This document shows positions 12,727-16,475 of a stretch of DNA of 51,207 nt, piece by piece (position 1 is the stretch's first letter; each line of letters opens with the position of its first letter). The DNA is taken from assembly GCA_001783145.1 (NCBI GenBank), contig MFQT01000009.1:1-51207 (forward strand), written 5' to 3'. The DNA comes from Candidatus Magasanikbacteria bacterium RIFOXYB2_FULL_38_10 (GTDB taxonomy: Bacteria > Patescibacteriota > Patescibacteriia > Magasanikbacterales > UBA10003). The position numbers were made by a program, and so were the translations under genes. The notes beneath the pieces are model-generated. The model had not been told where the DNA came from. It saw nothing but the letters and a program-made list of their open reading frames with translations, and made no database searches.

Positions 12727-13694
12727 TAATTCTTCACTCCAATTTTCTCTCTAACTCTTTTCATCATTGCTTGAGCTTCATTTCTTGCTTTGCCAGCGCC
12801 TTGCACCAAAATTTCTTTAACCATTTTTTCATTAGCATCTAAAGCTAATTTTTTTTCTCTAAGCGGTTGCAGGAAATTATTTATCCTCTCTCCTAACAAT
12901 TCTTTAGATTCTTTATAAGAAATTTGACCTTCTTTATAAGCCCTTTCTAACTCTTTTAATTCATCTGGAGTGGCAAATAATTTATGTAAAGAAAAAATAT
13001 TATCCGTTTTAGTATCCTTGGGCTCACTAGCACCTTTGCTATCTGTTTTGATAGTCATTACTTTTTTCAAGACATCTTTTTCACTATCAAATAATCCAAT
13101 AGTATTTTTATAACTCTTACTCATTTTTCTGCCATCTAATCCTGGCACTGTGGCCGATCCTTCCAAAATTCTTTCTTGAGGTACTTTAAAAATTTCTCCA
13201 AAAACCTTATTAAATTTTTTAGCCATATCCTGTGCCACCTCTAAATGCTGTTTCTGATCTGCTCCTACTGGCACCACATCGGAATTGTACATCAAAATAT
13301 CCGCCGCCATTAGTACCGGATAATCAAACAAACCCATATTGACCGGCAATTTTTTAGCCATTGCATCTTTATAGGCATGAGCACGTTGCAATTCCGCAAT
13401 CGGCGTTAAACAATTAAAAATCCAAGCAAGCTCCGTTACTTCTGGCACATCGGATTGTTTAAATAAAGTCACTTTATCCGGATTTAACCCAATCGCCAGA
13501 TAGGCTTTGGCAATTTCTAAAATATTTTTGGATAACTCTTTCGCATTCTGCAATTGATTCAAAGCATGATAATCAGCAATGAAGATAAAACTGTCAAATT
13601 CATTCTGCAAATCCAAAAACTGACGCATGGCGCCAAAATAATTGCCAAGATGAATGTCTCCCGTCGGTTTAATGCCTGATAATAATCTTTGCAT
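12726..13694 (-). CDS. trpS: Tryptophanyl-tRNA synthetase
   Basis: 322 aa. SGIKPTGDIHLGNY (HIGH-type) and KMSKS motifs; the size is typical of TrpRS. Confidence 0.95.
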   Translation of the reverse strand: MQRLLSGIKPTGDIHLGNYFGAMRQFLDLQNEFDSFIFIADYHALNQLQNAKELSKNILEIAKAYLAIGLNPDKVTLFKQSDVPEVTELAWIFNCLTPIAELQRAHAYKDAMAKKLPVNMGLFDYPVLMAADILMYNSDVVPVGADQKQHLEVAQDMAKKFNKVFGEIFKVPQERILEGSATVPGLDGRKMSKSYKNTIGLFDSEKDVLKKVMTIKTDSKGASEPKDTKTDNIFSLHKLFATPDELKELERAYKEGQISYKESKELLGERINNFLQPLREKKLALDANEKMVKEILVQGAGKARNEAQAMMKRVREKIGVKN

Positions 13695-13706
13695 AAAATT
13701 TTGAAT

Positions 13707-13778
13707 GAGCGGGTAGCGGGAATCGAACCCGCATCTTCAGCTTGGAAAGCTGTAATAATAGCCATTATACTATACCCG
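13707..13778 (-). tRNA. tRNA-Gly(UCC)
   Basis: Hand-folded 72-nt cloverleaf: acceptor GCGGGTA/TACCCGC, anticodon loop UUUCCAA, T arm GCGGG-TTCGATT-CCCGC, discriminator U. CCA is not encoded. Confidence 0.9.
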
Positions 13779-13926
13779 CGAAGTGAGCAGAAAGCAGACA
13801 AACTTGTTTGTCTATTTTCTGCGAACGAGCGGATATACGGAGTATACCCGCGAAATGAGGAATAAGGCGGCCAAGCAAGCTTGGATATCTTTTCCGAACG
13901 AGTGGGTATACGAAAATATACCCGCG
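13771..13926 (-). repeat. Tandem 72/74-nt repeats that reuse the tRNA-Gly 5' end (acceptor-stem mimic plus a variable hairpin)
   Basis: ATACCCGCGA occurs at 13771, 13843 and 13917. Both units share the ends ATACCCGCGAA-TGAG and CGAACGAG-GG-TATACG. Their centres differ in sequence but each is a hairpin. Confidence 0.7.
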
Positions 13927-13952
13927 ACGCCTAACATTATAACAAACTCTTT

Positions 13953-16475
13953 TTAAAAAGCAAGGCACAGTTTCCTTTTGACCATTCGTAAAATACGTAA
14001 AGAAAAAGCCACGGCCATAGAAACACTAACAATTAAACCCAGTTCAAACCAAGATAATTCCACCAAATGAAAAATTTTTCTCAAAATTGGCACTTCCACA
14101 ATCAAGAATACCAAGGCAAAAGTTAATAAAACAATCCCTAACAACAATTTATTGGTTTTAACCTGATGTGGCTCGCGGCTAAAAATTATTAAAAATATTT
14201 GCGATAAAACCAAAGAAGTAAAAGCGGCGGTTCGGCCCAACTCCATGTCCCCCATTACTAGAGCAAAATAGTAATAAAATCCAAAAGAAACAGCCAAAAT
14301 GGAAATCCCTTGAATAAAAACTATGGCCCACAAGTGGGGATTAATAAGCGGCTCTTGGGAGGATCTTGGCGGCTGATGCATTAAATTGCGGCGCGGCGAT
14401 TCTCTTTCAAACCCCAAAACCGCGGCGGGATCGCAAATCAATTCTAAAAAAATAATATGAATGGGTAAAAAAACCAAAGATTGGCCCAGCATCAAAGGTA
14501 AAAAAGCCAAACCCACAATAGGCAGATGAAAAGAAAATAAAAAAACAAAAGCCTGGCGCAAATTATCATAAACACGCCGCCCTTCTTTAATTGCATTAAC
14601 AATTGTCGCAAAATTATCATCCATTAAAACAATACCGGAAGCCGCCCGCGCCACTTCTGTGCCTTTTAACCCCATGGCAATACCAATATTAGCTTGACGC
14701 AAAGCCGGAGCATCGTTAACCCCATCACCGGTCATCGCCACTATCTCACCTTGTTTTTGTAAAGCTTCTACAATCAGATATTTTTGTTCAGGATGAACCC
14801 GAGTAAAAATGTCGTGGCGTTTTACCGCTTCCCGAAGGGCAAATGGCGACATTTTTTCTAAATCTTCTCCGTTGATAATTTCTTCACTGTGCTTTAAGCC
14901 AATTGATTCGGCAATATTATGAGCGGTTAATTTATTATCACCGGTTATCATAATAATGCGAATGCCGGCTTTTTGGCAGATATCTACGGCCTCTTTAACA
15001 CCTTCACGCGGCGGATCGCTCATTCCCAAAAGACCAATAAAATCTAAGTCTTTAATAATTATTTTCTCTTGCTCGGAGCAAGATCTTTTAGCAATAGCTA
15101 CCACGCGACAACCGGCCGCGGCCATTTCTAAATAGGCTTTTTCAATTTTTTGTTTTTCTGTTTCAGATAATTTACTGTAAGCAATAACAGATTCCGGCGC
15201 TCCGGCAGTATATTGATAGCACTCTTCATCCGGTTCCTGCCACATATGATGAACCATTTTAGTTTTAGATTCAAAAGAACTGTCTTGTAATAATTTTCTT
15301 TCTCTAAAAAAAGAATGGGTATCAATGCCGATTTTTTTGGCAAAATTTTGCACCTCTACTTCTATGGGGTCAATGGCCACTTGTTCCAATGCCAAAAGAG
15401 AGGGCACAATAATCTCTTTTAAATTCAACGGATGCAGATGGCCTTTCTTTGTTTCAACTAATTCTCCGTCGTAATAAATAAAATCTAAAGCCATGGTACC
15501 TTGAGTTAGAGTACCGGTTTTATCAGTGCAAATCACAGTAGCCGAACCCAAGGTCTCCACCATGGCCATTTCCCTAATTAAGGCTTTTTGACGCGTCATG
15601 CGCCATACGCCCATAATCAAAAATACGCTAAAAACAATGGGAAATTCTTCCGGAATTAAAGACATGGCAATTGTTAAGCCGCCTAAAACACCACTAGTCC
15701 AGCCCTGTTTTAAAGCCAAAATTAAGCCGATCAGTAAAGCGGAAAAAGCCGCAAAAATCGCCACCACTCGCACCAAACGATAAATTTTCATCTGCAAAGG
15801 AGTTTTTTGACTGATAATTTTCTCCATCAAACTGCCGATTTTGCCATAAGCGGTATTGACCCCTGTGGCTAAAGTTAAAAAATAAGCCTCACCTTGTACC
15901 ACCAAAGTCCCCTGCCATAATTTATTTTCATCTTTTACCTGTTTTAAACCATCGGACAAAACCGATTTAACAACCGAAATTGATTCTCCTGTCAGAATGG
16001 ATTCATCAAGGGAAACTCCGGGAGAACTTAAAATAATGCCATCAGCCGGCACACGATCACCTGCCGTTAAATAAACTAAATCGCCCGGCACGATATATTT
16101 AATTTCCATCTTTTTTAAAAATCCGTCTCTATAAACTTCCGCGTATTGCACCATCATTTTATCAAGCGCCCCAATGGCCTCATCAGTTTTCTGCTCTTGA
16201 AAAAATTCCATCAAACCAATAGGAATGACAGTCAAAAGCAAAATAGACGTTTCCAGTTTATCGCCTAAGAAAAAATAAACCGCGGCTGTTGCCAAAAGCA
16301 AAAGCATCATGGGTTCACCCATAATTTTTACCAATCTGTTTATCCAATTTTTTTTCTTAACTGCCGGTCGGGAATTTAAACCATATTCAATTAAAAAACC
16401 CTCTGCTTCTTTAGAAGTCAGACCTTTAAAGGTATTGCGCTCGGCTATTATTTTTTCTAAATTTAAATTGTCCAT
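13953..16475 (-). CDS. Cation-transporting P-type ATPase (P2/Ca2+-type by motifs)
   Basis: 840 aa. DKTGTLT phosphorylation site, TGDN, GDGVNDAPAL, and the IPEEFP ion-site helix. The ion specificity is inferred only. Confidence 0.85.
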   Translation of the reverse strand: MDNLNLEKIIAERNTFKGLTSKEAEGFLIEYGLNSRPAVKKKNWINRLVKIMGEPMMLLLLATAAVYFFLGDKLETSILLLTVIPIGLMEFFQEQKTDEAIGALDKMMVQYAEVYRDGFLKKMEIKYIVPGDLVYLTAGDRVPADGIILSSPGVSLDESILTGESISVVKSVLSDGLKQVKDENKLWQGTLVVQGEAYFLTLATGVNTAYGKIGSLMEKIISQKTPLQMKIYRLVRVVAIFAAFSALLIGLILALKQGWTSGVLGGLTIAMSLIPEEFPIVFSVFLIMGVWRMTRQKALIREMAMVETLGSATVICTDKTGTLTQGTMALDFIYYDGELVETKKGHLHPLNLKEIIVPSLLALEQVAIDPIEVEVQNFAKKIGIDTHSFFRERKLLQDSSFESKTKMVHHMWQEPDEECYQYTAGAPESVIAYSKLSETEKQKIEKAYLEMAAAGCRVVAIAKRSCSEQEKIIIKDLDFIGLLGMSDPPREGVKEAVDICQKAGIRIIMITGDNKLTAHNIAESIGLKHSEEIINGEDLEKMSPFALREAVKRHDIFTRVHPEQKYLIVEALQKQGEIVAMTGDGVNDAPALRQANIGIAMGLKGTEVARAASGIVLMDDNFATIVNAIKEGRRVYDNLRQAFVFLFSFHLPIVGLAFLPLMLGQSLVFLPIHIIFLELICDPAAVLGFERESPRRNLMHQPPRSSQEPLINPHLWAIVFIQGISILAVSFGFYYYFALVMGDMELGRTAAFTSLVLSQIFLIIFSREPHQVKTNKLLLGIVLLTFALVFLIVEVPILRKIFHLVELSWFELGLIVSVSMAVAFSLRILRMVKRKLCLAF

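Follow-up and report, generated by a model that had tools for sequence, protein, structure and literature searches.

Several described systems place short structured modules beside genes. External guide sequences and minihelix substrates of ribonuclease P (RNase P) combine a target-complementary strand with an acceptor-like helix that starts at the cut site, with a single-stranded leader on its 5′ side and a tail on its 3′ side. In the leaders of rRNAs, whose transient pairing with the mature 5′ end acts as a folding chaperone, and in the sequestor/anti-sequestor platforms of riboswitches, alternative pairings let an upstream strand hold a downstream 5′ end or start codon. REP/BIME, Correia and IS200/IS605-derived PATE elements are short, hairpin-rich, intergenic and multi-copy, and sometimes tandem. 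The t-elements of plant mitochondria (PMC1920247), tRNA-like structures beside mRNAs, serve as processing signals that set mRNA ends, as in the tRNA punctuation of organellar transcripts. Here we describe an element found in a 51,207-nucleotide (nt) stretch of Candidatus Magasanikbacteria bacterium RIFOXYB2_FULL_38_10 (contig MFQT01000009.1, positions 1 to 51,207; the window), where two tandem units stand directly upstream of a tRNA-Gly(UCC) gene. Comparative analysis gives good support to a new structured RNA family with two covarying hairpins, a covarying long-range helix, two conserved single strands and at least 32 copies in one genome. Its design principle is unusual, because the element both copies and complements the first bases of the gene that follows it.

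Read on the minus strand, unit 1, unit 2 and tRNA-Gly(UCC) lie head-to-tail without gaps. Each unit comprises a first hairpin (H1) whose 5′ arm equals tRNA nt 1-9, a single strand, J1 (UCGUUCG), a second hairpin (H2) of unrelated sequence and a terminal single strand, J2, of the form (C)CUCAYUUC; J2 of unit 2 adjoins tRNA position +1. The scores below are from two covariance models, R1, built from four units of the source genome, and a second model, R2, both strand-specific and seeded from the window locus; inspection covered the matches listed.

13925-13852, minus strand: unit 1, 74 nt (R1 91.7 bits, R2 69.6 bits)
13925-13902, minus strand: unit 1 H1
13901-13895, minus strand: unit 1 J1, UCGUUCG
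13894-13859, minus strand: unit 1 H2
13858-13852, minus strand: unit 1 J2, UCAUUUC
13851-13780, minus strand: unit 2, 72 nt (R1 86.7 bits, R2 75.0 bits)
13851-13829, minus strand: unit 2 H1
13828-13822, minus strand: unit 2 J1, UCGUUCG
13821-13787, minus strand: unit 2 H2
13786-13780, minus strand: unit 2 J2, UCACUUC
13779-13707, minus strand: tRNA-Gly(UCC) (ARAGORN; Rfam tRNA model 64.4 bits)

An earlier, sequence-only reading had described tandem units of 72 and 74 nt, each starting with tRNA nt 1-9, and a repeat search bears this out: the 11-mer TATACCCGCGA (plus strand) occurs at 13771, 13843 and 13917 with 100% identity and spacings of 72 and 74 nt, so that GCGGGUAUA begins each unit as well as the tRNA. 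The same search returned a 49-nt repeat family (71% alike, spacing 73) and unit tails that are 83% alike; the unit ends, previously given as CUCA(U/C)UUC, indeed read CCUCAUUUC and GCUCACUUC. The high divergence between the copies kept Tandem Repeats Finder from reporting the window array. Unit 1 folds at -19.9 kcal/mol (z -2.87; 1 of 200 shuffles equally good) and unit 2 at -31.4 kcal/mol (z -7.81; 0 of 200), with z -7.13 for the two folded jointly; unit 1 H1 has a C-A mismatch at pair 2. The tRNA, whose nt 1-9 are the sequence copied at the start of both units, does not encode CCA, and its trailer CAUUC is similar to J1 in the repeat search. ARAGORN found no tRNA gene inside either unit, and an Rfam cmscan over 13400-14300 at E ≤ 10 matched only the tRNA, at 13708-13779, leaving the units unmatched.

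The proposal that an acceptor-stem-like hairpin is followed by a second one, variable in sequence and kept in structure, is upheld by covariation as well as by these folds. In an alignment of 58 units fitted to the model structure (one spurious reverse-strand row included), 91.0% of H1 and H2 cells are paired against 67.4% in shuffles, double changes occur in 22 of 25 pairs, and the covariation score of 0.549, against 0.166, is reached by none of 500 shuffles; slid registers pair at most 47% of cells. H1 and H2 covary freely in sequence, and J1 and J2 are strongly conserved and single-stranded. Across the family H1 measures 8-14 base pairs (bp), with loops of 3-6 nt, and the consensus runs H1, J1 UCRUUCG (often followed by YUCG), H2 and J2 (CUCA)CUCAYUUC, then the next unit or the downstream RNA without a gap.

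The opening 6-14 nt of the downstream RNA recur in the H1 5′ arm, which gives the H1 3′ arm two complementary partners, this 5′ arm and the genuine 5′ end. The 3′ arm, ending right before J1, can accordingly pair with about the first 7 nt right after J2. We examined this pairing at 42 canonical units located before an ATG, 5 of 47 having been left out for a non-canonical J2. Pairing of the 3′ arm with positions +1 to +3 is seen in 111 of 126 cells, compared with 75.3 ± 4.1 when loci are shuffled (0 of 10,000), while the terminal 3 nt of the 3′ arm pair with its own 5′ arm in 51 of 126. The downstream start is the better partner in 32 of the 42 loci and ties in 10; the own 5′ arm is better in none, and the long-range helix includes the AUG in 42/42. 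In an alignment made by MAFFT without structure information (62 of 75 units), the 7-bp helix is 87.9% paired versus 75.7% after shuffling (0 of 500), slid registers reach at most 60%, and three variable pairs show 18, 28 and 6 double changes. Left out of that alignment were 10 units with an atypical J1, J2 or boundary, one with a misparsed boundary, and G018:C8:5841 and G018:C7:7692, whose downstream sequence is unpaired with the 3′ arm. In all contexts together, an unbroken run of 7 or more pairs starts at the junction in 49 of 105 units; shuffles gave a mean of 9.3 units with at least 6 and a maximum of 19. At tRNA-Lys(CUU) and tRNA-Asp, too, the tRNA is a better match for the 3′ arm than the 5′ arm of the unit is.

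Units recur well beyond the window. R1 matches at E ≤ 0.01 occur in 19 of 61 related genomes, which are not independent of each other. At E ≤ 1e-4, R2 has matches in 8 of 151 genomes of a class-wide sample and in 5 of 151 of a phylum-wide one, with the source genome (G000) included in both samples and two genomes common to both. One genome holds at least 32 R2 copies. We inspected 106 units, made up of 74 of 77 R1 matches (one reverse-strand overlap and two weak matches were left out), one extra and 31 further R2 matches. Their placement is precise: 62 stand exactly 4 nt before the ATG of an open reading frame (ORF) of at least 60 aa, 14 adjoin tRNA +1 (within 3 nt of the ARAGORN start) and 12 adjoin another unit, leaving 18 others, some of which precede, by eye, short ORFs such as L36 or non-coding sequence. 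Hence 88 of 106 are sense-oriented at ATG-4, tRNA +1 or the next unit. Arrays comprise 1-3 units and frequently open with a partial unit or with a left flank ending ..CAUUUC. An exact-pattern scan of named GTDB genomes returned at least 120 stretches against about 4 expected by chance; among the matches listed, titles were mostly Candidatus Magasanikbacteria, 'Patescibacteria group', Parcubacteria, Portnoybacteria, Uhrbacteria and Berkelbacteria. A few records bear the names of other phyla. Several multi-copy metagenome-assembled genomes are titled 'uncultured Gammaproteobacteria' or 'Candidatus Udaeobacter', and these are probably mislabelled bins. The element had no match in 50,697 phage records, and in Rfam 15 only tRNAs match, in the window at E ≤ 10 and at nine related loci at E ≤ 1, with known self-cleaving ribozymes and the T-box unmatched.

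What lies downstream is varied, and the copying follows it (promoters, relatives' gene names and the identity of tRNA prefixes were assigned by eye). The tRNA-linked arrays precede Gly (UCC, GCC, CCC), Ile, Lys (CUU, UUU), Pro (GGG, CGG), Gln, Glu, Phe and Asp tRNAs, and in 16 of 16 a unit opens with a copy of the 5′ end of its own tRNA, covering 8 amino-acid identities; in 13 of the 16 the agreement over the first 9 nt is 8 or better, and the copy extends up to 14 nt. The version at ATG-4 is found in Magasanikbacteria-like genomes before dozens of genes. The proteins encoded are diverse, with N-termini like those of SSB, S1, L24, L36, adenylate kinase, MreB and enolase, and further look-alikes of ATP synthase gamma, thymidine kinase, TruB, TrmD, a UvrD-like helicase and membrane proteins. 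Of the claim that the units are small tRNA-mimic RNAs, the mimicry stands, across eight tRNA kinds; its restriction to tRNAs is too narrow, because the mimicry reaches mRNA starts. Nor does H1 carry the 'U discriminator' once assigned to it: that U is the constant first base of J1 and also occurs before tRNA-Ile and tRNA-Lys, whose 3′ ends read A before CCA.

The source genome assembly (854 kb, 20 contigs, 46 tRNAs) contains a second two-unit array at G000:C16:62354-62502 on the minus strand. It adjoins tRNA-Gly(GCC), which shares the acceptor stem of tRNA-Gly(UCC), encodes CCA, unlike the latter, and is followed by tRNA-Met about 140 nt further downstream. One of its units shares 93% identity with window unit 1 across 84 nt and has an H1 reading GUGGG../..CCCAC at the place of the C-A mismatch; the other has a perfect 11-bp H1 (GCGGAUAUAUG/CAUAUAUCCGC) with an A-U pair at position 5. 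Compared with window unit 1, these changes indicate that H1 is maintained by compensatory change. Only 2 of the genome's 46 tRNAs, the UCC and GCC Gly genes, have their first 7 nt plus the complement repeated upstream, and tRNA-Gly(CCC) has no unit, only a terminator-like hairpin. A fifth copy, G000:C17:57062-57131 on the minus strand, lies antisense in the 132-nt atpE-atpF spacer; it has the long Magasanikbacteria-type J1 UCAUUCGCUCG and J2 UCUCACUCAUUUC and a 3′ arm able to pair with the bases beyond J2. This copy could have been acquired recently or belong to an antisense transcript.

A comparison of related genomes for copy-number variation and covariation, suggested by the sequence-only reading, was informative on both counts. 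At tRNA-Gly(UCC) of the same-genus genome G001, a partial unit without H1 precedes a full unit; H2 of the partial unit resembles that of window unit 2 and H2 of the full unit that of window unit 1, so copy number and unit order differ from the window while H1 and H2 covary across the alignment. G001 also has a unit before tRNA-Gly(CCC), where the source genome has none, and three genomes of the same family and other genera have no unit at their Gly tRNAs. What had been proposed from the window did not extend to the second locus, the family at large or the pairing of the 3′ arm with downstream sequence.

Some units depart from the consensus. One of eight 8-kb loci sampled has a shortened variant, in which H1 is followed directly by UCAUUUC and, across the junction, GCAU AUG, without J1 and H2. 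J1 (UCAUUCG) and the end of J2 with +1 (UCAUUUCG) are near-repeats, and a unit looks like two 'hairpin plus tail' modules. Two G018 units (C8:5841-5902 and C7:7692-7771) end ..CAUUUA and continue into the identical sequence CGAGCAAAGCGAGCGAA; this repeated stretch includes the complement of UUCGCUCG in J1.

We tentatively infer that the units form a modular 5′ leader RNA of Patescibacteria that would be transcribed with the downstream gene and cut by RNase P at the J2/+1 junction, a reading we hold to be possible rather than probable. It ranks first on the precise J2 junction in three contexts, the acceptor-like helix at each of them and the presence of RNase P genes: the genome encodes a type A RNase P RNA (157 bits) at G000:C2:81422-81819 and rnpA at C16:114514-114843. 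The junction of J2 with tRNA +1, which is direct in 14 of 14 tRNA-adjacent units, is an RNase P site by established biology, and H1 and the long-range helix both start, as the helix of an RNase P substrate does, at the first base after J2, with a single-stranded leader on the 5′ side. At the window, a promoter next to the ATPase gene or read-through from that gene would yield a single precursor of unit 1, unit 2 and tRNA-Gly. Each junction between J2 and the helix beginning at G+1 would mimic the leader/acceptor-stem junction of a pre-tRNA, and cuts at 13926/13925, 13852/13851 and 13780/13779 would free the tRNA along with two RNAs about 73 nt long. Transcripts of protein genes offer no acceptor stem; before them, the H1 3′ arm would be a built-in cis guide that pairs with GNWUAUG, and the same cut would leave an mRNA with a 4-nt leader. 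The bolder form of this proposal, that some Patescibacteria encode natural cis guides for RNase P as a portable leader, with the 3′ arm pairing with at least the first 7 downstream bases and directing the cut there, so that tRNAs are matured and the mRNAs of dozens of genes punctuated into near-leaderless 5′-GNWU-AUG, strikes us as doubtful.

The surroundings of the array bear on transcription.

16475-13953, minus strand: upstream P-type cation ATPase gene, stop 13955-13953 (Pfam E1-E2_ATPase 5.6e-39, Cation_ATPase_C 8.3e-34)
13963-13958 and 13944-13936, minus strand: promoter-like TTGCTT, 16-nt spacer, TGt-TATAAT, assigned by eye and overlapping the ATPase stop codon
13694-12726, minus strand: downstream gene for a class I Trp/Tyr-type aminoacyl-tRNA synthetase (Pfam tRNA-synt_1b 3.4e-66; ORF list)

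The spacer between the ATPase stop and the tRNA measures 173 nt, one fewer than previously counted, and the synthetase gene begins 12 nt past the tRNA. The promoter-like arrangement upstream of unit 1 is kept in G001, the second array lies behind a promoter-like TTGACC-17-TATATT, and in G030 a TTGACT-17-TAAATT box stands 6 nt before the first base of a unit, which would place that unit at the 5′ end of the primary transcript. The orthologous loci G055:C11 and G051:C3 share TTGACA-17-TATAAT about 100 nt upstream of a unit before an S1-like gene; box and unit are separated by some 90 conserved nt that include a hairpin and a U-run and could be a separate small RNA or a leader. The sequencing runs that contain the stretch are only groundwater, soil and other DNA metagenomes. 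In four of the runs contigs break around the repeats, with no joints and no copy-number variants.

Several points weigh against RNase P cleavage of a transcribed leader. A promoter scan flagged nothing on the minus strand upstream of unit 1, since the -35 hexamer of the candidate matches at only 3 of 6 positions, and two RNA runs contain 0.04-0.06 of the sampled words of the stretch. The units lack a 3′ RCCA, J1 being UCRUUCG, and a T-loop; an H1 of 8-14 bp means no fixed 12-bp acceptor/T-arm geometry; and position -1, usually U for bacterial RNase P, is C. RNase P does not account for the strong sequence conservation of J1 and J2, and a tRNA needs no guide. A long H1 is thermodynamically far stronger than the 7-bp long-range helix, which may therefore seldom form. 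Within the genus of the window, 2 of 4 tRNA-proximal units have a 3′ arm that matches its 5′ partner arm better than it matches the tRNA, and the compensatory changes are carried by H1 itself. J2-like leaders are absent from most tRNAs of the genome, and one copy lies antisense, in the atpE-atpF spacer.

Several other roles for J2 were considered and set aside. As a general tRNA leader it fails, a loose pattern occurring in only 4 of 46 tRNAs, of which two are the Gly loci and two weak. As a general start-codon context it accounts for 5-6 of 36 long ORFs at the eight 8-kb loci, a sample biased because these were picked for holding the motif. As a Shine-Dalgarno (SD) partner it is unsuited, the 16S 3′ ends being canonical and J2 resembling rather than complementing that sequence. 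In the same sample SD-like words accompany only 9 of the 36 long ORFs, despite a canonical 16S anti-SD, and some genes of that Magasanikbacteria genome carry TATAAT 6-8 nt ahead of the ATG, pointing to leaderless mRNAs; a 'no SD' argument for leaderless translation is weakened by the element-free neighbours, SD-like in 3 of 20 by a crude longest-ORF call. The apparent likeness of J2 (UCACUCAUUUC; CCUCCUUUC in G001) to the 16S rRNA 3′ end (GAUCACCUCCUUUCU) extends loosely to H2 plus J2 and helix 45 plus tail, such that a cut at the J2/+1 junction would give unit RNAs with 16S-like ends. The released units of about 73 nt, with such a tail, could be small RNAs in their own right.

The two mutually exclusive pairings of the 3′ arm, each with covariation support, would suit a fold switch or cis folding chaperone that works without cleavage at the boundary. 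The 3′ arm would then transiently hold the downstream 5′ end or start codon, the 5′ arm would serve as anti-sequestor, and J1 and J2, conserved single strands as a binding site would be, would bind a protein or sense a global signal and so set translation start or tRNA folding. The AUG is covered by the long-range helix at every canonical ATG-type locus, and the end of the 3′ arm, far better paired with the downstream start than within H1, resembles a toehold. We nevertheless consider a switch unlikely: it leaves the exact tRNA +1 junction and the constant 4 nt to the ATG unexplained, would require one signal for dozens of unrelated genes and eight tRNA kinds, and offers no obvious gain from tandem copies or partial units. 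Conserved, unpaired J1 and J2 between freely covarying helices are also the usual signature of a catalytic or ligand-binding core, and the junction is precise in three contexts, as would befit a new small self-cleaving ribozyme in which the long-range helix and H2 flank a J1/J2 internal loop, the cut falls at the J2/+1 junction and tandem copies separate themselves. Such a ribozyme seems very unlikely to us, given the lack of an Rfam ribozyme match at the thresholds above, a long-range helix of about 7 AU-rich pairs that competes with a stronger H1, the variant without J1 and H2, and the fact that a cut at tRNAs is already explained by RNase P.

Explanations at the DNA level draw on the distribution instead. 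The family is patchy across families of bacteria, copy number and unit order differ between the window and G001, which has its extra unit at tRNA-Gly(CCC), arrays frequently begin with partial units or behind ..CAUUUC, and the antisense atpE-atpF copy has a perfect Magasanikbacteria-type J1 and J2. All this would suit a mobile or duplicative repeat, akin to a miniature inverted-repeat transposable element or PATE or arising by local tandem duplication, with an RNA that is itself functionless. Against it stand the 88 of 106 sense units at fixed junctions (from a strand-specific model and listed matches only) and arms tuned to each downstream gene with compensatory changes, which passive copying would not produce; no transposase was recognised beside the arrays, and the phage records hold no match. 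We judge it distinctly improbable. That the units are decayed tandem tRNA-Gly copies or integration scars, the latter among the explanations first offered, is scarcely credible. A period near tRNA length, a tRNA-like first 9 nt and 3′ acceptor strand, and the likeness of the tRNA trailer to J1 speak for decay, as does a weak 13-nt likeness of unit 1 to the anticodon arm; we do not build on the last, which is at the same level as another chance repeat family. The tRNA model and ARAGORN leave the units unscored, pairing in H1 and H2 is kept by compensatory changes, and the same J1, H2 and J2 module stands before protein genes and before tRNAs of seven other types. At tRNA genes, integration is known to duplicate the 3′ end rather than the 5′ end; the repeated part here is tRNA nt 1-9, between flanks that encode the ATPase and the aminoacyl-tRNA synthetase (the wider window was not searched for an integrase). 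A clustered regularly interspaced short palindromic repeats (CRISPR) array, in which near-identical repeats of 23-47 nt alternate with unrelated spacers, had been dismissed earlier and we concur: conserved and variable parts alternate inside the units, the 'spacers' are H2 hairpins with the same flanks, and there are only 1-3 units.

A leader RNA family cut by RNase P therefore stays our tentative preference, and the family itself is apparently undescribed. The literature searched, supplements not covered, held nothing describing the element, and the Patescibacteriota array cluster in the bioRxiv preprint 10.64898/2026.10.21.760802 is a short n-mer array, not this element. The family is directly testable with in vitro RNase P and self-cleavage assays. 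Unlike REP/BIME, Correia and PATE elements, which have element-specific ends, no tuning to the neighbouring gene and no fixed orientation or start-codon distance, the units follow the sequence and the position of the gene behind them. Compared with riboswitches and rRNA leaders, they lack an aptamer-sized domain, use one module for both tRNAs and mRNAs, and occur in tandem copies. External guide sequences are closer; here the guide would be natural, in cis and upstream of its target, joined to the leader through J1, H2 and J2, without RCCA and hidden by a duplicate of the target in the H1 5′ arm, and cleavage is a prediction. Should our preferred reading be true, no earlier case would be known of a natural guide or minihelix system, encoded in cis, that directs RNase P to mRNAs genome-wide in bacteria. 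The system would also be a bacterial counterpart of organellar tRNA punctuation in the uncultured, poorly understood Patescibacteria, ultra-small bacteria of groundwater. The t-elements are tRNA-like folds unrelated to the sequence of their mRNA, whereas the present element has an acceptor-like helix only, made from the first bases of the downstream RNA, and its host, unlike that of the t-elements, is a free-living-type bacterium with a ribonucleoprotein RNase P.

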